A DNA stretch of 64,000 bases from positions 23,064,001-23,128,000 of the forward strand of contig NC_135808.1 in the NCBI RefSeq assembly GCF_964213995.1. Reading direction: 5' to 3'. The position numbers and the translations under genes were made by a program. The DNA is from Mustelus asterias. Taxonomy: Eukaryota. The notes beneath the pieces are model-generated. The model was not told the DNA's origin. It was given only the letters and a program-made list of their open reading frames with translations, and did no database searches. Positions 7,419-62,574 of this stretch are shown in pieces (position 1 is the stretch's first letter; every line of letters starts with the position of its first letter).

Positions 7419-10274
7419 GAATTCTGTTCACAAACAGGGCATATAAAGACACAAACTCAATTTACATGAATAATGGTTGGAATGCGAATACTTACAGCTA
7501 ATCAAGTCTTTAAGATACAAACAACGTGAGTGGAGAGAGCATCAAGACAGGCTAAAAAGATGTGTATTGTCTCCAGACAAGACAGCCAGTGAAACTTTGC
7601 AGGTTCAGGCAAGCTGTGGGGGTTACAAATAGTGTGACATGAACCCAATATCCCGGTTGAGGCCGTCCTCGTGTGTGCAGAACATGGCTATCAGTTTCTG
7701 CTCAGCGACTCTGCGCCGCCGTGTGTCGTGAAGGCCGCCTTGGAGAATGCTTACCCGAATATCAGAGGCCGAATGCCCGTGACCGCTGAAGTGCTTCCCA
7801 ACAGGAAGAGAACAGTCTTGCCTGGTGATTGTCGAGCGGTGTTCATTCATCCGTTGTCGCAGCGTCTGCATGTTTTCCCCAATGTACCATGCCTCGGAAC
7901 ATCCTTTCCTGCAGCGTATCACGTAGACAACGTTGGCCGAGTTGCAAGAGTATGTGCCGTGTACCTGGTGGATGGTGTTCTCACATGAGATGATGTCATC
8001 TGTGTCAATGATCCAGCATGTCTTGCCGAGGTTGCTGTGGCAGGGTTGTGTGGTGTCGTGGTCACTGTTCTCCTGAAGGCTGGGTAGTTTGCTGCGGACA
8101 ATGGTCTGTTTGAGGTTGTGTGATTGTTTGAAGGCAAGAAATGCGGGTGTGGGGATAGCCTTGGAGAGATGTTCGTCTTCATCAATGACATGTTGAAGGC
8201 TCCGGAGGAGATGCCGTAGCTTCTCCGCTCCGGGGAAGTAATGGACGACGAAGGGTACTCTGTCTATTGTGTCCCATGTTTGTCTTCTGAGGAGGTCGGT
8301 GCGGTTTTTCACTATAGCGCGTTGGAACTGTTGATCAATGAGTCGAGCACTATATCCTGTTCTCATGAGGGCATCTTTCAGCGTCTGGAGGTGTCTGTTG
8401 CGATCCTCCTCATCCGAGCAGATCCTGTGTATACGGGGGGGCTTGTCCGTAGGGGATGGCTTCTTTAACATGTTTAGGGTGGAAGCTAGGGCAGTGGAGC
8501 ATCGTGAGGTTATCCGTGGGCTTGCGGTACGGTGAGGTACTGAGGTGACCATCCTTAATGGAGATGCGTGTGTCCAAGAATGCAACCGATTCCGGAGAGT
8601 CGTCCATGGTGAGTCTGATGGTGGGATGGAACTTGTTGATGTCATCATAGAGTTGTTTCAGTGATTGTTCACCATGAGTCCAAAGGAAGAAAATGTAATC
8701 GATGTATCAGTACACTTCTAAATGACAACTAAACAATGAGGAACACTGCAGACAGTTACCTGCAGATCCGACCAAAGAACACACCCATCAACTCAACACT
8801 CTGATCAAGACCTTTGATCCGGACCTTCAGAGCACCCTCCTTGCTCTCATCCCACGTACTCCACACGTTGGAAATCTCTACTGCCTCCCGAAGATACACA
8901 AGGCAAACACACCTGGCCATCCCATCATATCGGGCAATGGAACCTTGTGCGGGAACCTCTCCGGCTATGTCGAGGGCATCCTGAAACCCATTGTACGAAG
9001 AACTCCCAGCTTTTGTCATGACACTGTGGACTTCCTACAGAAACTCGGCATACATGGAGCAGTTGAACCAGGAGCACTCCTCGTCACAATGGATGTCTCG
9101 GCACTCTACACCAGCATCCCCACGATGATGGCATTGCTGCAATGGCCTCAGTGCTCAGCGCCGACAAATGCCAGTTTCCAGATGCAATTTTACAACTCAT
9201 CCGCTTCATCCTGGACCACAATGTCTTCACCTTCAACAACCAGTTCTTCATCCAGACACACGGAACAGCCATGGGGACCAAATTCGCACCTCAATATGCC
9301 AACATCTTCATGCACAGGTTCGAACAAGACTTCTTCACCGCACGGGACCTTCAACCGATGCTATACACTAGATACATCGATGACATTTTCTTCCTTTGGA
9401 CTCATGGTGAACAATGACTGAAACAACTCTATGATGACATCAACAAGTTCCACCCCACCATCAGACTCACCATGGACTACTCTCCGGAATCGGTTGCATT
9501 CTTGGACACACGCATCTCCATTAAGGACGGTCACCTCAGCACCTCACTGTACCGCAAGCCCACGGATAACCTCATGATGCTCCACTTCCCCAGCTTCCAC
9601 CCTAAACAGTTAAAGAAGCCATCCCCTACGGACAAGCCCTCCATATACACAGGATCTGCTCAGATGAGGAGGATCGCAACAGACACCTCCAGACGCTGAA
9701 AGATGCCCTCATGAGAACAGGATATAGCGCTCGACTCATTGATCAACAGTTCCAACGCGCCACAGCGAAAAACCGTACCGACCTCCTCAGAAGACAAACA
9801 CGGGACACAGTGGACAGAGTACCCTTCGTCGTCCAGTACTTCCCTGGAGTGGAGAAGCTACGGCATCTCCTCCGGAGCCTTCAACATGACATTGATGAAG
9901 ACGAACATCTCGCCAAGGCCATCCCCACACCCCCACTTCTTGCCTTCAAACAACCGTACAACCTCAAACAGACCATTGTCCGCAGAAGACTACTCAGCTT
10001 TCAGGAGAACAGTGACCACGACACCACACAACCCTGTCACAGCGACCTCAGCAAGACGTGCCGGATCATTGACACAGATGCCATCATCTCACGTGAGAAC
10101 ACCATCCACCAGGTACACGGTACATACTCTTGCAACTCGGCCAACGTTGTCTACCTGATACGCTGCAGGAAAGGATGTCCCGAGGCATGGTACATTGGGG
10201 AAACTATGCAGACGCTGCGACAATGGATGAATGAACACCGCTCGACAATCACCAGGCACCTGTGAACAGAATTT

Positions 10275-10319
10275 CCACTCACCTGAAGAAGGGGCTTGGA
10301 GCTCTGAAAGCTTGTGTGG
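10275..10319 (+). ncRNA. Minimal type I hammerhead ribozyme motif in the PLE 3' region
   Basis: CCACTCAC-CTGAAGA-stem II (GGGGC/GCTCT)-GAAA-GCTT-GTGTGG; palindromic AAGCTT stem III typical of PLE minimal HHRs. Confidence 0.7.
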
Positions 10320-10684
10320 CTTTTGCTACCAAATAAACCTGTTGGACTTTCACCTGGTGTTGTTAAACTTCTTAATGTGTTTTACCCCAGTCCAACGCCG
10401 GCATCTCCACATAATGTATTTATTCACAACCTCGCCACATTCTCCACCCTCTCTCACAGGCTATCTTGTTGGTCTCCAAAAAGTTCTCCCCTTTCCTTAT
10501 CCTTTTCTCTTCATGTACTGATACAGCATGTTTGGAGGTTCTTTGATATTTTCTTGGCAGCATTTTTCATGCCCTCTCTTTACTTTTCTGATTTCCTTTT
10601 TAATTTCACCCTGACACTCTCTGTACTATTCCAGGTTTCTGCATTATTAGGCGTGAGGCGTCTGATGGACTTTGCTGTTGGTAT

Positions 10685-27560: not shown

Positions 27561-28459
27561 CTATTGTTTATTAATGAAACGGATAATTGATGTAAATGGA
27601 TATTTCAGCGCGCTCTTGAACTGATCCCTGAACTTAGACTGAGTCACTCCATATATAAATGCATTTGTGCAGCAACTTAAATCCACCAGCATAACTCCAA
27701 CTTGATCAAATATATATAAAGAATCGTTATAATTTGCGGGATTAGTTCCTGAAATTATATATAAGAAATTTGTAACATATAAAAACCATAAGAGTATGAA
27801 GCTCCCAGATATGGTGAAGAGTAAAATCATAGACTTCCTTCTGCCCTCCATCTCTGGGTCACTGCGATTATCGCATTTGCTCTGACCCCTCAGTCCCTTC
27901 CGTACTCGACTGGTCACTAAAATATATCTGACTGTAAGAGTGTTGAGCAACAGAATTGAAACATATGGGATCAATGGAGTTGAAACCGTTTCAAACCATT
28001 CAAATGCCACCCATCCTGGGTCAGTATAATAACTTGGTTTTTCATTACAGAACCAGGGGACATTGTCGATTATCTCTCTAGGTTCAAACCTAAAGTAGAT
28101 CGGAATGGCTTTTAAACACATCAGGGTGCAAGTGGTTGATAGTACTGCAGCTGCAGTTTGTTCGGTGCAGTATTTCGTTTTCAGCTTCTGACAACAAATG
28201 GCCACAAATCGATCGAAGGAGAAAGTGACGGTGAACCAGACAGAACAGTTCACAGTTGCATAAAGCAGTACAAAGATAATAGTACATGCAGGGGTGATGT
28301 TCAGTAAAGATCCTGGGAAAAAGTAGCTGATCCGATATAATATGACCGCAGTGATAATCACCAGAAGATCTGCCGCTGCCATGGCCACGAGGTACCGAGT
28401 AGTACAGCTGGAGAGACCGCAGTTTCTCCGGGACAGGATCACGATTGCCATTAAATTAA
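27561..28459 (-). CDS. Class A orphan GPCR, GPR139/GPR142-like (cartilaginous-fish-type paralogue), exon 2
   Basis: Uninterrupted 7TM ORF: NLMAIVIL, YLVAMAAADLL, SVWFTVTFSFDRFVAICC, LLNTLTVRYI, RRKSMILLFTISGSFILLW, CCTNAFIYGVTQSKFR; acceptor ccatacag at 28460; joined to exon 1 gives 320 aa. Confidence 0.93.
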
Positions 28460-29049
28460 CTGTATGGGAGGGATAAAAATGTAGACTGTAAGTTACTGAT
28501 CCAGCATTCTCCATATCGGCTGGGTTGGTGTGGGGCAACAGCTGATTGTTTGAAATAGATCTTTATTTACCCAAAGACAATTTAAACTTGCAAATATCTG
28601 TGCTTAACAGAATTAGGATGGTGGGCTCTGGGAGGGGTTATCATAATTTCTTTTATTTTTTAATAAACTTCAAATAATCTATTGCACATACGTCACAGAC
28701 ACAGTTCTCAGACTTTGGGCAATGTGAAAGGTGAAAGAGGGATGAGCACAACTTCAAGGCTAAGGCAAGTGTCTTCATCACACTGGTTATGTGCAAGGGG
28801 AAAGTAGTAGTTTTCTTGCTTCACCTCCACCTTGCACGCAATACACAAACTCCACCACCGCCTCAACCCCATCCAAACAGAAAGGAACCCGAAGCAGCCA
28901 TCAGTCCCTGCATGTCCAGACAACCACGCCCAGTAACGAAGTTAGAACGGAACAGAACTGCTCCTGAAGAGTGCGATGAAGCCTCGCCCGCCCTACCTCC
29001 GCCGAATGTGGAGAGAGCCCTGACAACTGGGCTACTCTGAGAACAAGAA

Positions 29050-33002: not shown

Positions 33003-34392
33003 AAGCAAAATACTGCAGATGCTGAAACCTGAAACAAAATCAGAAAAGGCTGCAAAATCTCAGCAGGTCTGACAGCATCTGTGGCAAGATAATAGAGCCA
33101 ACGTTTCGAGTTTGGATGAACCTTCTCCAGAGCTCAAGGCAAACAAAATAGAACTAGATTTATGCTGTAAGGGTAGGTGACGGGGTGGGGGTTGCTCTCT
33201 AATTGAAGCGGACAGAATAGACAAAAATATATGCAAAAGGTAATAAAAGCTGAGAATGGTGCTAACATCATCCACTAGTAGATCGGGATGTGGCAGCTTT
33301 CACAATGGTTCATGTGCACCTCCTTCAACCTGATCTATTGTATTTGCTGGACACAATGCGGTCCACTCTACATTAGAGAGACCAACTGCAGGCAGTGTGG
33401 CCGCATTATAGAGAACATTTTATCGTCCACAAGCAGGAGCCAGGCCTTCCTCTCACTTGCCATTTTAACACCTCATCCTTCTCTCATGTGCACATGTCCG
33501 TCCTTTGCCTGTGGCAATGTTTGTGTGAAGCCCTATGCAAATTGGAGGAACAGCACCTCATCTTCCGAGGAGGCACTTTACAGCCTTCCAGACTGAAGAT
33601 AGAGTTGAATAAATTCAGAGAATGAACTCTTTGCTCCACCTCCACTCCATTTATTTCATTTTATTTCATATACTTTTCTCTTATGAATCCATTTTTATTA
33701 CTTAATTTTTTTTATAATCAGTTTGATTTTTAATTTAATCCATCGTTTCATTTGTGTACTCTCTAATCTTCCTTTCCGTCTCCACCTACCCCTTCCCCCC
33801 AAACACACACACACAAACGCACACATCCCACTCAGGTCATCTGCCACATACCTCAGCTTGTCCTTTGACATTTTACACCTGTGTTCTCTTTTTTTAGGTA
33901 TTCAGATCGCTTAGTGGATGTTGCTAGCACGATTCTCAGCATTTATCAAAGCTCACATTCCCTTTTGTCCTTTGTCCATGGAATCCCTATCAGTTCTGTG
34001 CCTCTCTCTCCCCTCACCATTGCACTATACATCTCGTCCTATTTTCTATGTCTTCAGCTCTGAAGGAACGTTATCATTCAGCTCTATTCTGTCTCAACAG
34101 ATGCTGTAAGAAGTCTCACAACACCAGGTTAAAGTCCAACAGGTGTATTTGGTAGCAAATACCATAAGCTTTATATATACGATAAATACGAAAGCTTACG
34201 GTATTTGCTACCAAATAAACCTGTTGGACTTTAACCTGGTCGAAAGCTTATGGTATTTGCTACCAAATAAACCTGTTGGACTTTAACCTGGTGTTGTGAG
34301 CCTTCTTACTGTGTTCACCCCAGTCCAACGCCGGCATCTCCACATCAACAGATGCTGTCAGACTTGTTGAGATTTCCAGCATTTGTGTTTTT
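33003..34392 (+). mobile_element. Penelope-like element, family B (inverted 5' arm + GIY-YIG remnant + 3' end)
   Basis: 33003-33135 is an inverted copy of the 3' end at ~34050-34392; FMCTSFNLIYCI..QCGPLYIRET and CKLEEQHLIFR..TLQP are GIY-YIG remnants; decayed HHR (CTGGAGA...GAAACGTT) on the minus strand near 33095-33135. Confidence 0.8.
34108..34345 (+). mobile_element. PLE family A fold-back (subfamily variant) nested in PLE family B
   Basis: Inverted arm plus tandem 3' units plus tail ...GGCATCTCCACAT; TSD CAACAGATGCTGT at 34095-34107 and 34346-34358. Confidence 0.88.
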
Positions 34393-44436: not shown

Positions 44437-44851
44437 CTCTCATAAACCTGAGCTGCAAAGGTGTCTGGGAAAGGGGAGCAGAGATTGAATGTGATGGAAG
44501 TGTGGGCCAAGTTTTCCACGCCACAAAGAGGTGAGGGCACCCTGCTTATCCTTATAACTGTGTGCAAGATATTCAGCTGTTCCATTGACCCAGGCCTGCG
44601 AAGAATGACCAGTTAGAGCCATAGCAGTGACGGAAATCAGAGGCTGCTCGGCACTTTAAATAATTGAAGCAGATTGTTTTCTTCCACTTGTAACGTGTCT
44701 CCAATGCAGCCAATAGTGAGCAAGTTTGTGCTATGCGGATATTGGTGAGTGAATTTCGTTTGAATTTTAAACTTTAAATCAACACATGCTGCGTCAGAAG
44801 TTGAATGGTAAACCATAATTTCTAGCTACATTTTCGTTTTCTCTCTTACAG

Positions 44852-45717
44852 TTAAGTGTAGTGGCGATTGCAGTCCTCACCTGGGGGAAGGGCAGCCTTT
44901 CCACTTTCACCACTCGCTACATGGTGGCCATGGCAATGGTAGATCTGCGAGTCATTATCAATGCTGTCATATTCTTAGGAATCAGTTCTTATTATTTGCT
45001 GTCATCTTTTTGGGGCATCGCCCCTGTTTGCAGTGTTAGCTTCATCCTGATTTATGCAGCTACGGAATGTTCTGTCTGGTTCATTGTCGTTTTCTCCTTT
45101 GATAGATTTGAGACCATTTGTTGCTCGAAGATTGAAACAAAATATTGCTCCGAGAAAACGGCAGTTGTTGTTCTTTCGACGACTTGAACTCTACTCTGTT
45201 TAAAAGCCAACCTGGTCAATTCAGACCTGAACCTGGAGAGGTAATTGACAATGTTCCCTTGTTCCGTAATGACAAGCAAAGCTATTATACTGATCTTGGG
45301 TGGCATTTAATTTATTTGATAGCATTTTTACAACATTGCTCCAGTTGACTACAATTATGTTGCTCAATGCTATGACAGTCAGATATATTTTAGTGACGTG
45401 ACGAGTCCTTAAGGGACTGAGGGGTCAGAACCAGGGAGAGAATCGCAGTGACCCAGAGGTGGAGAGCAGAAGGAAGTCTGTGATTTTGCTCTTCCCCTTT
45501 TCTGGCAGTCTCATACTTCAATGGATTTTAAATGGAATCAAGTTGTCGTGTGTTGGAGTGCAGGAGGTAATCACGAATATTACAATGATTCCTTGAAAGT
45601 CTTTGTGAAAATCAGACCGATGCTGGTGGATTTAAATTGCGATACAAACGTATTTATTATGTAGTGGCCCAATGCAAGTTCAAAGAACAGTTCAAAAGTC
45701 TGGTGAAATATTCGGTT
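44852..45717 (+). pseudogene. GPR139/142-like GPCR pseudogene (exon 2), 3' end interrupted by an ERV LTR
   Basis: Acceptor ctctcttacag; paralogous to 27561-28459 (TTRYMVAMA, CSVWFIVVFSFDRF, KGLRGQNQGENRSDPEVESRRKS); in-frame stops and frameshifts. Confidence 0.9.
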
Positions 45718-46899: not shown

Positions 46900-48120
46900 T
46901 TTCAATCTAACTGAATCTTGTAAAGTCTCTTCATTTCCTTGTCTACTGCATTCTCTGAGAGTTCTGGAGTTGTTATTATCATCATAGTGGCTACAGCTCC
47001 TGGTATAACTGCATTTCCAAACCGTGCACGGCAACACTTTATCATGGCAAATACCAGACATAGGGTAACGATAACGGCCAAAAATACGATTAACCCATGT
47101 ACTAGGGACCTACCTATTGCTCCTAAACATCACCCCACCCAACCAAAAATTCTCGAAGAATCTGGTTCCTTAAACATCTTATCCTTCTTTTGGACATGGT
47201 CCACTAAACTACCAATTTCATCAGAATACTTGGGGATGTATGTGCAGCATTCAGACCTTATTATCGCACATGTCCCACCTTTTTCAGCTAACAAATAATC
47301 TAGGGCCATCCTGTTCTGTAAAGTCACTGTCCTAATGGCTCTCATCTCATTGCTTAACCCTTTTATAGCTTTTGTGATTTCATTTGCCACCACTTCTAAT
47401 AATTTAGCTATTTTTATCATTTCGACTGAGGTAAATCCCATTCCAACAGAGGGAAAAAGGGTGGAGAAGAATTGTTGTGTTTCTGTAAGTGCGCGTTTAG
47501 ACCAATAAAGGGGGAGATGTGCTAGGGAGGGCAAATGATGGATATAAGACATTACATAGCCCAGGTAACATGACCCTTCCCAATTTAATGGCAACCAGGG
47601 ATATGCTTGATGTCCATACAACAAAGTATGTTCCATTTAAGGTTCACAAACTGATACCATTTCCTTCAGTTATAGTGTTTGCAAATGTGCGGATCAGTGA
47701 AATGTTACACTTAGTTGTTCCTGCATTCCATCCACCTGTCTGTATGCTGACCAGACAAATTGTCCCATTGGGTCTCCCTTGTTCTGTTGTGTGAGTAAGG
47801 AACAAGACAGGGGGCTTCTGAGAAAGGTTATAATTAGCTTGGAACCTTCCATTAAATTTATTCATATTATGCCCAGCTGATTTCCAATGTTCCCTGCTAT
47901 TCACTCGTCGTTCCTGAAGAAGGACTATTGTTCTGATTTTGGGCGACATTTTCTGATTCAGCCACCATTCTGATTCATTGAAAGGAATTGGACTTAAAGG
48001 AATACCTCCTTCGGGTGCGTCGGTACATGAGTACACACCCAACAGCTGGAAGCGGTGATATCCCTGGCATAGGTGTATCACATGTGCATGAAGGTATTTA
48101 TGTGCAATTCACACAATACA
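46900..48120 (-). pseudogene. env: ERV-1 env (SU-TM), frameshifted
   Basis: WEGSCYLG, SKR cleavage site, immunosuppressive domain LQNRMALDYLLAEKGGTC and CX6CC (CAIIRSECC). Confidence 0.9.
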
Positions 48121-50236
48121 TGTATTATATATGTCACAAGAAAATAGAGTCTTAATGTCCAGTTTCCTATATCGATGAGGCTGATGATTCCTTTTCCTCG
48201 GGACCTGGAGCCCACTTGCAATGCGATGCGTGGATCCATGACGGTCTTTCCTTCACCTTGATCGCAGTGTTGGTGGTCAGCAAGACGTGAGAGGGGCCCT
48301 CAAATCGTGGGTGAAGACTATTCTCTCTTTTAAACACCTTCACATGAAAGACGTCGCCCAGTTCTAAGTTGTGGCACCTCCCTTCTGTGGGATCAGTCTG
48401 AGCTTCCTTTACCTGGGAATGGAAACTAGAAATACATTTTGTTAACGCAATACAATCGTTTAGCACATTTTCTTCCATTCTGTGGATATTCAAATGCTTA
48501 ACAGAAATAAAAAGGCAAATGTTACGGGCTTGTGTGGCAATAGCCCAATTGTTCTGTTTGTTGCTGACCGCATTACCATTACTGCTCAGGGTAACAGTTG
48601 AACCGATTTTATTCCGGTTTCCACACAATGTTTGCCAGCTTGTTCTTCAGCATTCCATTATATCTCTATACCAGTCCAGCTGACTGTGGAGGATAACTGC
48701 AATGAAAATGCTGATTGATTCGCAATGCTTGACACATTTCTTTCATATCTGTCCCGTTAAAATGTGATCCATTATCACTTGAAAGTTGTAGAGGTATGCC
48801 AAATCGTGGCACAATTTATTTTAGGAAATACTTAGCAACAATAGTAGCATCATTATTTTTAAATGGAAAGGCTTCAAGCCATCTAGGAAATACATCAATA
48901 ATTACTAATATACACTTAACTCCCATGCACGGGGGTAATTCAATAAAATCAATTTGCAGATTTATAAAGGGTCCTGTTGGATTTGGGTGGGAGGCAGCCT
49001 ATACCTTTTCTGTTTTTCCCAGATTTATGGTTTGACAGGAAACACATCTTTCAGTAATTTGTTTGTGGTTGCTGAAATATCTGGTGCATACCATTTTTAA
49101 AAATATAGTCTGCCACCCCCCCCCCCCACCCCCACCCCCTTTTTCGAATCTCCAATTTACCTTCTTTTTTTTCCTTCCTCCCGGGATCTCTGTTCAAAAG
49201 GCATTCTTCTAGACAGGATATTCTATCGAGGTTGAATGTATCAAAAGGTGGGAAAGATTTTTTCTTACCCTTGGTCCATTCTACCCATTGTTGCAGGTCA
49301 CTGATTGGTGACTGACCACAATTTTGAAACAAAGAAAGCTGATGTTCCCTTCTGTGAAATTTTATTCGAACTCGCTCCCATTCTCTTAACCGATTGAGTT
49401 GGCACAGGTCACAGTATACAATCCCATTGCATCAACCGGTATTCTCTTCGCTCACTTCACCTGGCCTTCATGTGCCCATTTGGGCTCTTAATTCCGGCTC
49501 AGTCTGGGTGTCTGTGATATTTGTTGGAAGCAAGTCACTCGTTTGCTGATCAACCGATTATCACAGCAACTCAATCAGTTAAGGGTGATTTACTTTGTAT
49601 CTCTCTGTTAATTCCCAGTGATTTGATTCCCAAGGGCTCGATAGGAACATAAAGTACAAAACGCACAACAAAAAATCACTTGCAGTACAATCTTATACTT
49701 TAACTAAACATATAAACAATTCTCTGTCTACGTTGTGTGCCACCACAGACAGAGCCCTTAGCACATTATCTTAAACTCTAACAGTGCACTTTACTTAATC
49801 TCACTTATGATCCTATCACAGAAGGATCGGTCCTATCACACAAGGACTCTATCTGTCCCTTTTAGCTTTTTTGCTCCATCAAACAAGGGCTTATTCCTCT
49901 CACAGATGGAACAGTAACTTTCTCTCTTTCTTCTGACGTCTTTCCTGTAGGCTTACTTACACAACCTGTCCAGTCTGTTCAGGAGTGGATTTTGAACAAT
50001 CTGTCCCTCTTTGTCGTCAAGCTAAAGAAGAGGAAGTGATAAAAATAAGTTACTGAAATCAGTCAAATATCGCAGGACACCCGCCGGGACAAACAGACTG
50101 CACTTTCATCCATCCAAGGGAGGGCCTCTTTAGTGACTGAAGTATCACCCTTTATTTCACTGGCCAGTTGGAGTCATTCCTTGGAGAGCCGCTGTCCTTG
50201 TGTCTGTTTACTCACCAGGTAGGGGCAAGTGATTTT

Positions 50237-55003: not shown

Positions 55004-55596
55004 TGAAGTGAGGAAAAACATACAGATGAGTACACTTTAAAAATGACTGCCTGGCACATAAAGCGTTAACTGGGAGAGAGACCATAAAAGTGACACTGAC
55101 TCTTAGCCCAGCAACTACTTGTAAATTAAAACATGCATGAATTAGATACTGCAGGAAGCCAGTGGAAATAGGGACAGTCCCAGGACAAAAGGGTCTGTTA
55201 AAGAGATTAGCCACAAATGGGAATGGGAATAAGTAAATGCAGGAAAGCCAATTATTTTATGAATGAGCCGAAACTAAACCACTGATGGTCACTGACGTAG
55301 GAAATGTATCCATTCATAGAACAATGCGATGTTAACATGCTTATGTCTGTATCTGTCTGTATTTGTCTATAACGATGTGTTAACAATCGATCACCGACTT
55401 GATTACAACGATGTGATAATGGCTAAATGTCTGGTCCATCTATTGTGTAAATGGTATAAAGATGGACCGCTCCTGTTGTATCATTGAGAGAAGGTTTGCT
55501 GCTTGTTAGTGCCTTGTCTCCACGAAGCTTCGTTAAAATAATACTGTATTCTTGAAACCTTCATGCCTGACTCAGTGGTACATTTCCCACAAAAAT

Positions 55597-55615
55597 TGAC
55601 TTAGTCGGCTAGGAT
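55597..55615 (+). promoter_or_regulatory. ERV-2 primer-binding site, tRNA-Ser-like
   Basis: TGACTTAGTCGGCTAGGAT versus TGGCGTAGTCGGCAGGAT expected for tRNA-Ser; directly after the 5' LTR. Confidence 0.65.
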
Positions 55616-56303: not shown

Positions 56304-57643
56304 ATGGCAGATAATGAAGTTAAAAGGGGACCTGCAGGATCCTTCATTGAAATTTACATGACAAACAGGAAAGAGTTAATAAAGAGAATGCAAAAGGACG
56401 GCTGGGATACTTCTCAGACCTTAGAACAGCAGAGAAAGTGGATAGATAAAGAAAAGAGAAAGAAGACAAAGAAGATAGGAGTAATATTATCACATCAATT
56501 AGCTGGTCTAATTGAGCAAGTAGTCACCTCGACTAAGAAGTGGAGTGAAGATAAAGAAAGGATTAGAGAATTAGAATCCCGAGTGAGGGAACAGGAGAAG
56601 CAAAATCAGGTTTTAGAAGAAAAGCAATGGAGAGGGGAAACTGTTCCTCTAACTCCTTATGAGTCCACACAGCAGGGACCAACCACTCCTTCAGAGGAGT
56701 GAGAAGCGCTAGAACACAACTTAGCGCCAGTAACCCGAGGGGGAACAAATGCACGACCAAAGGCAACTTATCAACCCTTCACCCCAGGTGAGAGACAGCA
56801 GATAATGGCTTCCCTGGGTAAATTACAACCCAGAAGCGCAAGTACTAAATTCTGGGAATAATTAGACACAATCTGGATAGGACACCAATTACACCTGAGA
56901 GACATATACCAGCTGGACAGGGCAGCCTGTCCAGCGGATAAGTGGAGGCATGTAGCTGGTGGACCAGCAGCTCCTCCAGCACAGCATTATAATGGGGGAC
57001 GGTGGACACATGCAGTCTCCCTAGCATCAGAGATAGATGCCCAACAGGCACCCTTCACCCAGTTCAAAGCAGAGATTCAGAGGGTATTAGGGAATGCTTC
57101 CACTAACTGGAGAAGACTTACCACAACAAAACAGTTAAAAGGGGAAGGAGCTTCTGAATACGGGGAACGATTGTTACAGGTATATCAAGAGTGCTCAGGA
57201 CAAGGGAACCCAGGTCGAGGGGATTGAGCATTCATCCAGGCTTTTAAGGATGGACTCTCTAGCGCTCACCAGGTCATCCTAAAAATGGGAGTGATAATGT
57301 CCCAAGATTACGATGAATTGGTAGCGTGGGCCAGCGGAGTACCAGGAGAAGAAAAATCCCAGGCAAGAACAAGGCCAGAAAGAGTAGCAGCTTACAGTAA
57401 TGGGAATGGAACAAAGTCTAAACTGACTTGACTCAATTGTGGTCGGCAAGGACACTTTGCGAGGGATTGCGGGACTCCACGGAAAGGGAACAGGTTTTGA
57501 ACAGTGGGAAACATTGCAGCCACTGTAATAAATGTGGACACACAGAAGCAGTGTGTTGGAATAAGCATGGAAAACCCTCGACCCGATCCATGACCACAGC
57601 AGAACCAGAGGAACCACAGGACCTCCGGGGTCAGCAAGATTGA
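56304..57643 (+). pseudogene. gag: ERV-2 gag, frameshifted, two CCHC knuckles
   Basis: (C>stop)LNCGRQGHFARDC and CSHCNKCGHTEAVC; MHR-like KQLKGEGASEYGERL; position after the PBS. Confidence 0.8.
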
Positions 57644-59520
57644 CGGTCTGCAGCCCCCATTCACAAGGGTAAGAAGGAGGGAAGAATTTACGTGTCAGCA
57701 CTAGTAGGGGGCAGACAATGTGAGATGCTAGTGGACAAAGCAGCGTCCATATCTGTCACCGACCTACCCTTCCCCACTACAAATAAAATGATTTCCCTGA
57801 CTGGGATAGGAGGGAACAAAACACCCGCCTACCTGAGCGAGACCACGTTAGTAGAGATAAATAATCTGTATATACCAATGAGGTTTTGTGTGTGCAAAAA
57901 TAACGAGGGTACAATAATGGGAAATGATCTGATGAAAGAATATGAGATTCTGCTCGACTGTTGAAAAGGAGAATTAATCTGGCCAAGACAGGACGGTCGG
58001 AAAACTAGAACAGGGAAACTTACAAGTCACCTCGAAACTATTAAGGTAGCCACAGTCACCACCAGAAATTGGGAATTAGAAACAGGAGGGTTCGGAGCCA
58101 TCTGTGCCCCTGTCCCCGGAATATGGTCGAAAACGAAGTTAGATACTGGTTTGACTAAAACAGACCCAATAAAGGTACCGGGACCAGAGCATAAGCCACA
58201 CCGACAATACCCAATCAAACCCGAGGCAGAGAAAGCTGTAGTGGAGATAGTTAAAGGGTTAGTGGAAAGGGGGATTCTGAGAGAAACCACAAGCACCACT
58301 AACTCCCCAACATGGCCAGTGAGCAAGTCTGACGGAAGCTATAGGCTCACGATAGATTACACCGGACTCAATAAAGTCACGTCCAAATTGCACCCCATCG
58401 TAGCAAGCCCTTCGACAATCCTGAATGGACTGAATGGAGCATAAAATATTCACAGTATTGGACATAGCCAACGGATTCTGGTCCTTACCATTTGTTCCTG
58501 AATCCCAAGACAAATTTGCCTTTCCAGTGGGTGAAAAGCAGTACACTTGGACTCGTTTACCACAGGGATTCCACAACAGCCCAGCTATATTCCATAGAGC
58601 AATGAGTGACATCCTGAACAGAGTAGAACTGCCAGAGGGTAGTATGGTCCTACAATATGTAGATGATATCGTGATAGCTTCAGAGTCCAAGTCAGGACAT
58701 CAAGAAGCCTTACATTTAGTACTGAATGAATTAAAAGCTGCAGGGTTAAAGGTGAGCCCCAAAATGGCACAAATCGGGAAAACACAGGTCCTATACCGAG
58801 GACACGTTATATCCCAAGGACTTAAAGAAATGCCAACAGACTGACAGAAGGCAGTACAACAAATGCCGCGACCCGTCACCATAAGAGGGGTCAGAAAGGT
58901 GCAAGGACTATTCAACTATAGCCAGAGTTTCAACCCAGGGTTCACAAAATTAGCAGAACCCATACAGAGACTCGTCAGAGGGGGAAAACCAGCTTAAGAT
59001 CCCGTAGAATGGGGACTCGAGCAGGAAGAGGCTTATCATAGAATCATAGAATTATAGAAACCCGACAGTGCAGAAGGAGGCCATTCGGCCCATCGAGTCT
59101 GCACCGACCACAATCCCACCCAGGCCCTACCCCCACATATTTAGCCTCTAATCCCGCTAACCTACGCATCTCAGGACTCTAAGGGGCAATTTTTAACCTG
59201 GCCAATCAACCTAACCCGCACATCTTTGGACTGTGGGAGGAAACCGGAGCACCCGGAGGAAACCCACGCAGACACGAGGAGAATGTGCAAACTCCACACA
59301 GACAGTGACCCGAGCCGGGAATCGAACCTGGGACCCTGGAGCTGTGAAGCAGCAGTGCTAACCACTGTGCTACCGTGCCGCCCCCTATACTGAACTAAAA
59401 ACTGACATCAGCCCCTGGACGAGGATTACCCAATTCTAATAAGGACTTCCATATCCATTGTAGAAATGAGAGAGGGTTCTATTCCGCCGTGGTAACACAA
59501 GATCATGGCGACAGAAATAG
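57644..59520 (+). pseudogene. pol: ERV-2 pro-RT and start of connection/RNase H region, decayed
   Basis: Protease MLVDKAASIS...IMGNDLM; RT QYPI, NSPTWPV, YRLTIDYTGLN, LDIANGFWSLP, WTRLPQGFHNSPAIF, LQYVDD. Confidence 0.92.
59036..59383 (-). mobile_element. HE1/V-SINE-like SINE inserted in ERV-2 pol
   Basis: Full head, core and tail, close to the 4239 copy. Confidence 0.92.
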
Positions 59521-59775
59521 ATGATGTGGAGATGCCGGCGTTGGACTGGGGTAAACACAGTAAGAAGTTTAACAACACCAGGTTAAAGTCCAACAGGTTT
59601 ATTTGGTAGCAAAAGCCACACAAGCTTTCGGAGCTCCAAGCCCCTTCTTCAGATGAGTGGGACTTCTGAATTCCCACTAACCTGAAGAAGGGGCTTGGAG
59701 GTCCGAAAGCTTGTGTGGCTTTTGCTACCAAATAAACCTGTTGGACTTTAACCTGGTGTTGTTAAACTTCTTACT
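59521..59775 (-). mobile_element. PLE family A fold-back with two opposed hammerhead motifs; no TSD
   Basis: Tail ATGATGTGGAGATGCCGGCG..., then ~105-bp inverted arms centred near 59667. Confidence 0.9.
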
Positions 59776-59792
59776 GTATTTGTGATCCACAG

Positions 59793-60046
59793 GCATCCAT
59801 GTCTTCCAGATGATGACTGGCTGCAACCTGAGGGATGATGGGACTACGAGTGCATTCAACCAGTTTGGGTGGGATGGACAGGATGTTCTCAGCTTCGACA
59901 AGGATCACATGGTGTGGGTGACCCCAGTGCTCTGGGGAGATGTCATCAAAAACTATCTTGATAGGGACACTGCCAACAATGAGCGACTCAAACAATTCCT
60001 GGAGGTGGACTATATTGAGTAACTGAGGTAATTCCTCAAGTTCGGG
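59793..60046 (+). pseudogene. MHC class I alpha-2 domain exon, pseudogenised and 3'-truncated, embedded in ERV-2
   Basis: Acceptor gatccacag, then (G)IHVFQMMTGCNLRDDGTTSAFNQFGWDGQDVLSFDKDHMVWVTPVLWGDVIKNYLDRDTANNERLKQFLEVDYIE*LR*FLKFG, matching the class I alpha-2 pattern (H..Q..GC, GWDG.D..SFD, W, LE..C.EWL..L..G); second Cys is lost and there are two stops. Confidence 0.9.
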
Positions 60047-60156
60047 ACATATGAAGTTATAATTAGTGGAGACACCTGTGCCTGTATAGACATAAGAGGG
60101 AAAGGTGTCTGGAAACACTGGACACAACTAAAATTACACAAGGGAACAAATAAGTA
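60047..60156 (+). pseudogene. ERV-2 integrase C-terminal tip
   Basis: (G)TYEVIISGDTCACIDIRGKGVWKHWTQLK resembles the GPY.V...W.H...K integrase tail. Confidence 0.65.
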
Positions 60157-60399
60157 ATTAAATTGATGAACTAACAGAACTGATTTCCTCAACACAGGCA
60201 AAGACTGCAAACAAGAACGACTGGTGCGCGCGGGTTGATAGATAATATAACTTGTAAAGATTATATGAATTATCGTGTTAGGTTTGATATTTGATCGTTG
60301 TGAATATGTATTTAATCGCGTATGTAACTGTACTACTTTGCATTGCCGCGACTGTAAATTTAACTGGATTGGAGGATAACTTGTTTTACAAAGCTCACA

Positions 60400-61787
60400 T
60401 AAATTAAGACGGGAATCGAACTGTATGTTACCCGTTAGCACAATTGGTAGAAGCCCTATTTGTAGCCACCCCTGGGTGGACCCCTCATGACTTATGTACT
60501 GTAGATACATCAGATACACCCTGCAAGGGACAAATTGGCAAATATAAAAGAGGTATACAGGGGAGACGTGTGGGACTTGTAAATCCCACAGATCCTGTGT
60601 TCAGGGGGTTCCAACAGGTGGGAGGAATAGCTTGTTCAGATACTGCAAGCTATCCGCTTTGTTTTATGGGGCAGGGAGGGGATGTGCCTATGCCTTGGTC
60701 CCAAAGAATTATTCCTGCGTACAGATGCAGTGTGTCCGTCAACATTGTCAGATTAATAAGGGACAGTTTACTTGCACTTGTGATGAACAGAAATGTCTCA
60801 ATATAACTGCGGACAATGCAATGGAACTCACGTAATCTCAGCCAAATGGACATACCCATTTGATACTTACCAGGTGGTGGGGTCAAACGGGGAGTCAAGT
60901 AAACCGAACAATTGGCAATATGAACAAACTCATAATCAAGACACTAAATGTTACCGGGCTAAGAAGGGATATGTGTTCCTCTTCAATGGTACTTACATGA
61001 CAGAAACACCAAACCTCCCAAACCATTTTGCAGTCGGAACAATAGGACCACTGACTGTTCCATGCCCTCAGAAGGGGCATATTCGGAGGAGAATAGTAAC
61101 TCGGGCTATCAGCAAAAATTCTGCGCTGACTGGGAAGCCCCGGGCACAATGGGATCCTCACTGGGATATGGGTTCCTTGGAGCCTTATCCCTGCGGAGGG
61201 GCGGGGGGTGGGCGGGGTGGGGGGGGGGTGGTGGGGGAGGGCAGCAGGAGTGATTAGTGCAAAGAATAGGAATCATATTGTTTGTGGACTAACAGTCCTG
61301 GGAAACAGCACTTCAAAAGCACTGGAGGCTGTTAACCAAGAAATGGCTGAACTGAGATTATATGCACAGCAGACACAATATGCAGTGGACTATCAGTTAG
61401 CACAACAAGGGGGAGTGTGTACAATTATAGGCAATAAATGCATAACCCATGTCACGGACGAGTCCTATAACATTACACAGGTCATCAATAGCAACAGAAA
61501 AACAACTTGATAGCTTCAGACAGGGACCCAAGAAAAGATGTAACTGGCTGGAATGGTTAGTAGGGGGGTTCTGGGAGTCTTACCTATGACATGGATTGGT
61601 CATACTCGTTTCAATTGTAATTGTCTGTTGTCTGACTGTTGGATGCTTTAAAATCTGTTTTAAAATAATGTTGGCTAGAATTGTGCCAGGAGCCAGTGTA
61701 TACATCGAAGAAGAAAACCCGATGAAGATCCCCGAAGACATCAGAAGAAATGAAGAAGGAAAGAAGAACAAAGAATTATACATGTAA
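60400..61787 (+). pseudogene. env: ERV-2 env, frameshifted
   Basis: Cys-rich SU; RRRIVTR cleavage site; heptad IVCGLTVLGNSTSKALEAVNQEMAELR; YAVDYQLAQQGGVCTIIGNKC; TM anchor LVILVSIVIVCCLTVGCF; start position approximate. Confidence 0.88.
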
Positions 61788-62574
61788 AAATTGCTGGTCT
61801 AGGGATTAGTGAAACTCATAATCCGACCAAAAGTGGGGACTGAAGTGGGAAAAATATACAGATGGGTACACATAAAATGGCTGTCTGGCACATAAACAGT
61901 CACCTCGGAAAGAGACATTAAACAGGCACTGACGTTCAGTACAGACAACCACCTGAGATTAAAGGACAGACAGCTATTCAAAGTTCAAGATGCAGGAATC
62001 AAATCCTGCAGGAAGCCAGCCAAGGCTTGAGGCACTCTTTCGGATAAGGACAATAGGGTTGGATAACGAAATTAGCTACAGGTGGGATTGGAATACCTAA
62101 CTGCAGGAAAGCCAATTACTGTAAATTACGATATGAATAGATTGAAACTAAAACCACTGATGGCCACTGACAAAGCAAATGTATCCATTCATAGAACAAT
62201 GTGATGTTAACATGTTGATGTCTGTATCTGTCCGTATTTGTCTACAGCAATGTGTTAACAATCGATCACCTACTTGATTACAACGATGTGATAATGGCTA
62301 GATGTCCGGTCCAGCCATTGTGTAAAGGGTATAAAGATGGACTACTCCTATAGTCTCATTGAGAGAAGGTTTGTTGCTTGTTAGTGCCTTTTCTTCACGA
62401 AGCTTCGTTAAAATAAAACTGTATTCTTGAAACCTTCAAGCCTCACTCAGTGGTACACTTCCCACAACAGTGACCAAGATGAAGATCGTTGTAGAAACAC
62501 GTCTGCTTCATTAATATTCTTTAGGGTAGGAATACAGCCATCCTTACTTGGTCTGGTCCATATGTGCTTCATTT

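Follow-up and report, generated by a model that had tools for sequence, protein, structure and literature searches.

A decayed env copy of a cartilaginous-fish endogenous retrovirus in Mustelus asterias with a filovirus GP2-like TM subunit

The 64,000-bp stretch of Mustelus asterias DNA analyzed here (the window; NC_135808.1, positions 23,064,001 to 23,128,000) contains a broken env, with SU and TM parts. It is a decayed member of a lineage that published work has already linked to filovirus GP2. We consider it likely that this env is a dead copy from a class I-like cartilaginous-fish endogenous retrovirus (ERV), and that the family encodes a GP2-like class I fusion protein with an internal fusion loop and an SU held non-covalently to TM. 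Judged from sequence, our analysis would add three points to the published link: a non-covalent variant, a tie of the entire gene to Mab-Env2 and Tapajos GP, and a non-furin junction. What we observed for the env family is its sequence anatomy, its conservation, its placement in trees, and its proviral context.

Proviral context and decay of the env copy

The env sits where a provirus carries its env, between an integrase-like tail and the polypurine tract (PPT) plus LTR (Table 1). A tblastn search with P0001, a 497-aa protein and the closest intact relative, returned six env pieces in frames 3, 2, 1, 3, 2, and 3 at 60–92% identity. The five frame changes fall near 60670, 60800–60870, and 61115, in the G-run, and near 61500, and three of the pieces contain in-frame stops; a full protein cannot come from this copy. 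The motifs listed in the earlier note were confirmed in place once the env was read across three frames of the + strand. The G-run insert, which may be real or an assembly error, was left out of the comparison with sequencing contigs as a repeat. The env stretch was covered in all bins by contigs of four sequencing runs, and many of these contigs differ from the window, which is a hint of a multi-copy family and gives no copy number.

The two LTRs are 78.6% identical over 632 columns; identity is uneven, with 63–80% in the first 300 columns and 87–91% in the remainder, and no exact target-site duplication was seen by eye around them. Because of this unevenness and the lack of an exact duplication, the two halves of the provirus may come from two related insertions (a recombinant). 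The primer-binding-site-like stretch may resemble that for tRNA-Ser. ARAGORN found no tRNA. The pro-pol is 72–91% identical to P0193 by tblastn and its end corresponds to residue 432 in a relative of 914 aa, and the RNase H and the integrase core are absent from the pol of the provirus. The RT of P0193 scored 368 bits as MLV-type vs 177 bits as foamy; since the MLV-type RT scored best, the pol is class I-like, and a class III/SnRV-like pol is unsupported. The gag with its two knuckle-like motifs sits in an element whose pol is class I-like; a single Cys-His knuckle is usual in gammaretroviruses. The place of the RNase H and integrase core (59515–60043) is occupied by the palindromic repeat and the MHC exon fragment, which has an upstream AG. 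One contig of run X1 spans the exon/ERV junction (59932–60077) with zero differences; the exon may reflect capture or local rearrangement. The probable integrase tail has no Pfam match.

Elsewhere in the window, an ERV-1 remnant (46962–49061, − strand) consists of an integrase and a standard gamma-type env, with no LTR pair found around it. A 7-TM receptor ORF without introns, 333 aa long, lies at 27561–28562 (− strand; Pfam 7tm_1, E 3.5e-21), and an inverted stretch at 44826–45711 is paralogous to it (72.5%). Positions 7819–8708 and 9371–10258 form an 890-bp inverted repeat (94%), and the long ORFs within 7819–10258 have no Pfam match.

Table 1. Features of the provirus and of the comparator env in the window
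Feature	Position	Strand	Evidence
ERV-1 env, ordinary gamma-type (SU CWVC, CX6CC, no Cys loop); comparator	46962..48100	-	Pfam TLV_coat E 2.2e-11
5' LTR	55004..55594	+	direct repeat of 3' LTR
Primer-binding-site-like stretch	55596..55614	+	adjoins LTR
Broken gag	56304..57640	+	translation; tblastn with P0196, 29% over 419 columns
Two Cys-His-knuckle-like motifs in gag	57438-57470, 57524-57556	+	
Broken pro-pol, RT motif YVDD at 58656	57641..59530	+	Pfam RVT_1 E 2.6e-28
SINE-like repeat interrupting pro-pol	59036-59383		
Palindromic interspersed repeat	59515..59783	.	self inverted match 95%; copies 10267-10421, 34097-34347
MHC class I alpha-2-like exon fragment with stop, inside provirus	59786..60043	+	Pfam MHC_I E 2.8e-11
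Probable integrase C-terminal tail	60044..60157	+	position and likeness by eye
Broken env (SU + TM)	60306..61787	+	tblastn pieces, relative P0001
SU N-terminal single-Cys motif, no CXXC at that site	60417..60434	+	13/14 relatives examined, including Mab-Env2, Tapajos GP
SU C-terminal Cys motif	61057..61068	+	14/14 relatives examined, including Mab-Env2, Tapajos GP
Basic stretch, SU/TM junction	61084-61104	+	translation
SU/TM junction without R-X-X-R	61084..61115	+	motif check
Candidate Cys-bounded internal fusion loop, interrupted by G-run insert	61122..61285	+	
First loop Cys	61122-61124	+	translation
Hydrophobic Gly-rich stretch	61164-61193	+	translation
G-run insert, ~45 G-rich bases inside loop	about 61194-61240	+	
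Second loop Cys	61283-61285	+	translation
HR1 with N-glycan sequon (at 61304), ISD-like stretch, CX6C + Ile	61286..61444	+	Pfam PF22307, PDB GP2 matches
CX6C, then Ile codon ATA	61418-61441	+	
Membrane-spanning stretch	61593..61643	+	translation
3' LTR, polypurine tract ahead of it	61841..62469	+	

Internal loop, cysteine pattern and subunit linkage

At E ≤ 0.001, a profile search of 1.84 billion representatives found 813 proteins, and the listing gave 150 of them; the glycoproteins of Tapajos, Mengla, Marburg, and Lloviu viruses and Mab-Env2 are among the matches listed. The relatives, which include sequences named for sawshark, whale shark, horn shark, manta, epaulette shark, and catshark, are host-genome proteins across sharks and rays and are 55–90% identical. 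From the matches listed we examined 33 rows of the clade (26 parsed) and 113 control Envs (106 parsed), each row being a member of a cluster and not an independent event. Among these, the third Cys was present in 0/26 clade rows vs 102/106 controls, and both loop Cys in 18 of the 19 clade rows long enough to judge vs 0/92 controls. The claim of a CX6C motif without the third Cys is thereby borne out as a trait of the family, and loss of the third Cys through decay of the window copy is ruled out by its absence from all 26 parsed relatives. In the window, the ATA codon after CX6C differs from the Cys codons at three of three or two of three positions.

The loop Cys are separated by 39–43 residues in four intact shark-clade proteins, by 37 in Mab-Env2 and Tapajos GP, and by 44 in three filoviruses. 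The hydrophobic peak lies 13–20 residues inside the loop, and TM is polar over the first 11 residues past the basic junction (mean KD −0.39). An HR1 sequon stands 7 residues past the second Cys in all four shark rows, in Tapajos GP, and in 3/3 filoviruses, and is absent in Mab-Env2. Alignments with GP2, syncytin, and MLV TM take in the ISD-like stretch that precedes the Cys motif; a TLV_coat match was obtained for 17/22 members at E ≤ 1, and the GP41 model matched just 2/22 (E ≥ 0.06). A beta-type Env, defined by CXnC and no ISD, would fit poorly: CX6C is present, yet so is an ISD-like stretch. Strict gamma-type Envs share that stretch and differ in having CX6CC, and the polar TM start, the internal hydrophobic peak, and the single Cys near the SU N-terminus argue against the gammaretrovirus type, with its N-terminal fusion peptide and SU CXXC partner. 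With the avian gamma-type or filovirus GP2-type the family shares the Cys-flanked fusion-peptide candidate and the HR1 sequon, at the offset of 3/3 filoviruses, but not CX6CC with its inter-subunit bond. The AlphaFold2 model of P0001 (22 rows) was of low confidence (mean pLDDT 47.5, pTM 0.23), with the membrane-spanning part as the sole region above pLDDT 70; a Foldseek search with this model gave 0 at E ≤ 0.001 among 28 matches listed, and all Atlas structure rows for it had TM scores < 0.35.

In ASLV and Ebola virus, the third Cys forms the SU–TM bond with the N-terminal SU Cys as partner, and the flanking Cys pair closes the fusion loop (PMC3758190; PMC9967133; bioRxiv 2023.10.07.561363). 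We propose that the env of this family is a class I fusion protein of a GP2-like branch of the gamma-type Envs. In intact relatives the precursor would be cut at the basic junction, which lacks a furin consensus and probably marks the cut position. The TM would then run from a short polar start through a disulfide-closed internal fusion loop, an HR1 bearing a glycan, and an ISD-like stretch to a CX6C chain-reversal loop, HR2, and the membrane anchor, and fusion would be driven by the internal loop. The four Cys of the TM ectodomain presumably pair among themselves, as the loop pair and the CX6C pair. Since there is no third Cys and the four TM Cys would pair off within TM, the SU–TM association is most likely non-covalent. 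The N-terminal SU Cys probably bonds the conserved C-terminal SU Cys rather than TM; both terminal Cys are kept in 13 of 14 rows.

The same family could instead join SU to TM covalently through another Cys pair, formed by an unpaired SU Cys or an internal SU CXXC with a TM Cys. Five of 13 rows have an odd number of SU Cys, so a free thiol is possible, and an internal CXXC occurs in 8 of 14. Against this, the count is even in the other 8/13, the CXXC is missing in six rows (P0008, P0011, P0020, P0179, Mab-Env2, and Tapajos GP), and all 10 full-length rows have exactly four TM ectodomain Cys. We regard such a bond as unlikely and retain the non-covalent arrangement. In the catshark-type proteins P0011, P0179, and P0181, an additional domain of about 170 residues lies at the SU N-terminus, before the shared SU core.

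The junction was checked in 30 rows, 10 of which were not parsed. RXXR was found in 0 of 16 parsed close relatives; it is present in two deeper members, in Mab-Env2, and in Tapajos GP. Of the cleavage site drawn in the earlier note, the basic stretch therefore stands, but a canonical R-X-K/R-R or R-X-X-R furin site does not. The shark-clade junction fits the SKI-1/S1P motif, R-X-aliphatic-Z (PMC8310232), which is short; cleavage by this protease may be taken as a lead. A general basic-site rule (PMC8310232) or a P6/P1 Arg site could serve as alternatives.

An SU-only profile built from 11 shark-clade rows and run against 192 proteins matched Mab-Env2 at E 3.4e-11 and had no match to filovirus GP1. 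Three unrelated rows matched it at least as well as Tapajos GP did (E 0.029). An alignment of Mab-Env2 with Tapajos GP spans 434 columns (28%, E 3e-40), and the tie of the shark SU to Tapajos GP, a weak one, would run through Mab-Env2 as a bridge.

Relationship of the TM subunit to filovirus GP2

The GP2-like architecture that the earlier note had read by eye, with its loop-bounding Cys pair, is matched by profile as well as by the relatives described above: the unbroken piece 61130–61507 matches the Ebola-like HR1-HR2 family of Pfam (PF22307) with 27.4 bits (cut-off 27) and E 3.2e-6. Piece 61241–61507 matched 54 PDB sequences at E ≤ 10, and the top 37 are filovirus-type GP chains, the best GP2 match reaching 48.5 bits (E 8e-12). 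Lower matches were CAS virus GP2 (34.6 bits), syncytins (18–20), and ASLV TM (14, E 0.5). On Marburg GP the TM piece scored 58.9 bits, and 500 shuffles gave a maximum of 24.3. In pairwise BLASTP, the window TM core scored higher on two CX6CC Envs, P0021 and P0042 (67.0 and 65.5 bits), than on filovirus and Tapajos GPs (58.9–59.7 bits); the PDB ranking therefore partly reflects PDB content. By hhalign, Tapajos GP aligned at 99.1% over 208 columns that extend into SU, with the loop sequence aligned; Marburg aligned over 85 columns that start just before the second Cys, with the loop unaligned. Matches to filovirus TM begin about 10–13 residues ahead of the second Cys.

TM trees were built at three levels and contained no ASLV row and no reptarenavirus row. 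The quick tree (144 rows; 12 dropped as too short) placed the window TM in a 30-row group with Mab-Env2, Tapajos, the filoviruses, and four squamate rows (SH-aLRT 91), and the ERV-1 TM in the CX6CC group (SH-aLRT 96). The phylogeny called for in the earlier note thus groups the window with GP2, Tapajos, and Mab-Env2, apart from CX6CC Envs, and the two Envs of the window are distinct, as that note had held. In the careful tree (41 chosen rows, 159 columns, loop included), the shark clade (95/84) was sister to Tapajos plus Mab-Env2 (92/86), followed by the mammalian filoviruses (86/63), and the whole loop-bearing group had only 59/84 against the outgroup. In the trait-free tree (118 columns, loop removed, third-Cys site masked), 15 shark-clade rows, three filoviruses, Tapajos, and Mab-Env2 formed one group at 97/97, which upholds the suggested relevance to the origin of filovirus glycoproteins; the branching order inside this group was not recovered. 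An AU test did not reject shark plus mammalian filoviruses to the exclusion of Tapajos (p-AU 0.152). A single capture by all filoviruses including Tapajos was rejected, with a borderline p-AU of 0.039. All rows without the third Cys as one clade were not rejected (p 0.273), and this clade was not recovered in the trait-free tree. The squamate Envs P0100, P0106, P0139, and P0151, which have a Cys-bounded loop and no third Cys, fall outside the GP2 group when the trait columns are removed; because of this, the combination of loop and missing third Cys may arise more than once.

These results bear on whether an ordinary fish gamma-type Env gained a loop and lost the third Cys independently, its GP2 likeness being convergence or long-branch attraction. 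The BLASTP preference for CX6CC Envs, the weak 59/84 support on short alignments, and the position of the squamate group would all suit such an origin. The 97/97 grouping on columns without either trait argues against it, as do the SU homology to Mab-Env2 and an independent published placement (PMC11521997), and we consider it quite improbable. Still less credible is an integrated filovirus-type glycoprotein gene (a non-retroviral EVE) that landed between the LTRs: the filovirus-type chains that head the PDB matches and the rearranged pol–env interval of the window would allow it, but the env position between integrase-like tail and PPT plus LTR, the 55–90% identical host-genome relatives across sharks and rays, and an SU without a match to filovirus GP1 make it very improbable. 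A retroviral env of the GP2-like branch remains our preferred reading.

Comparison with known Env systems and significance

In the work of Nino Barreat and Katzourakis (2024; PMC11521997), ebola-, marburg-, cueva-, and dianlovirus GP2 has as its sister group the ERV ectodomains found in Chiloscyllium, Scyliorhinus, Amblyraja, and Leucoraja (pp 0.83). Tapajos groups there with ERVs of lizards (pp 1), and reptarenaviruses group with those of tarsiers. The 14 chondrichthyan loci in their table include four from Rhincodon. Our family shares with these filo-like ERVs the retroviral context, the shark and ray hosts (Rhincodon and the genus Scyliorhinus occur in both sets), the best matches (6BP2_B Marburg GP2, Mengla, Lloviu, and Tapajos GP), and the grouping with filovirus GP2. 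Membership of the window env in their shark clade is indirect, resting on these shared features. The accessible text of that paper covers the HR/ISD ectodomain, and the Cys loop, missing third Cys, SU, and cleavage site are undescribed in it. Its grouping of sharks with Ebola and Marburg viruses differs from our full-TM tree, where sharks join Tapajos and Mab-Env2; it is the former arrangement that the AU test did not reject.

Chen et al. (bioRxiv 2021.11.23.469661) listed CXnC as one subtype of the gamma-type Envs of fish and amphibians and scored an "Alpha_FP" feature; like our family, these anamniote Envs include ISD-bearing fish Envs with two Cys in the motif. With both reports in print, the novelty implied by calling this an unusual lineage was overstated. 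CX6CC candidates appear in a shark Env survey (Proudley et al., 2026), and Cys-flanked fusion peptides beyond birds occur in bats and reptiles (PMC13568524), as far as the accessible parts of these sources go. A literature search, with most subscription papers outside it, found neither the loop plus CX6C/CXnC as a family trait, nor SU homology of shark ERVs to Mab-Env2 or Tapajos GP, nor the absence of an RXXR furin site in the shark Env family.

Beyond sharks and rays, the full-length relatives that come nearest are Mab-Env2 of Mabuya (ATY46612.1) and the GP of Tapajos virus (YP_010798909.1); the earlier note named neither. Both share the Cys-bounded loop of 37 residues, the missing third Cys, both terminal SU Cys, a similar length (461–470 aa), and SU homology (weak for Tapajos); they differ in having CX7C instead of CX6C, in keeping RXXR, and in an identity to P0001 of about 24–27%. 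The GP2 of Ebola, Marburg, Lloviu, and Mengla viruses has the two-Cys loop and the HR1 sequon offset and is 36–40% identical over 80–86 residues, but it carries CX6CC and a GP1–GP2 disulfide, its loop is unalignable, and GP1 is unmatched by the shark SU. The likeness to ASLV proposed at the outset holds for layout, i.e., an internal Cys-flanked fusion peptide and no N-terminal CXXC as defined in PMC3758190, but not for TM similarity, which is among the weakest found (14 bits in PDB, 23 bits with the profile); ASLV Env also has CX6CC and a covalent SU–TM bond. An ESM Atlas feature search with SU pointed to Avian_gp85/TLV_coat clusters at 0.92, a lead only. A bearing on reptarenavirus fusogens, also proposed, is weaker, given the CAS virus GP2 score and the published pairing of reptarenaviruses with tarsier ERVs (PMC11521997).

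A broader joint reading, which we hold only tentatively and find somewhat doubtful, would unite the shark and ray ERVs, the lizard Mab-Env2, and the snake filovirus Tapajos GP in one old, unnamed Env type with a GP2-like internal fusion loop, a non-covalent SU–TM association, and SU ends joined by their own disulfide. Tapajos virus would have acquired a whole SU+TM env from that type, and Ebola and Marburg GP2, with CX6CC, would be its sister. Because the junction of the shark sub-branch lacks RXXR and fits R-X-aliphatic-Z, SKI-1/S1P or another non-furin protease may prime this sub-branch, as happens with arenavirus glycoproteins.

Among retroviruses, this env family counts as one of the nearest kin of filovirus GP2, and it would break the textbook pairing in which an ISD means a covalent SU–TM bond and CXnC means beta-type. 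If a GP2-like Env holds SU to TM non-covalently, the disulfide that joins the subunits in filoviruses and ASLV would be dispensable for the fold, and the direction of its gain or loss would become testable. Full-length homology running from shark ERV through Mab-Env2 to Tapajos GP would widen the capture model from the ectodomain only to the whole gene.
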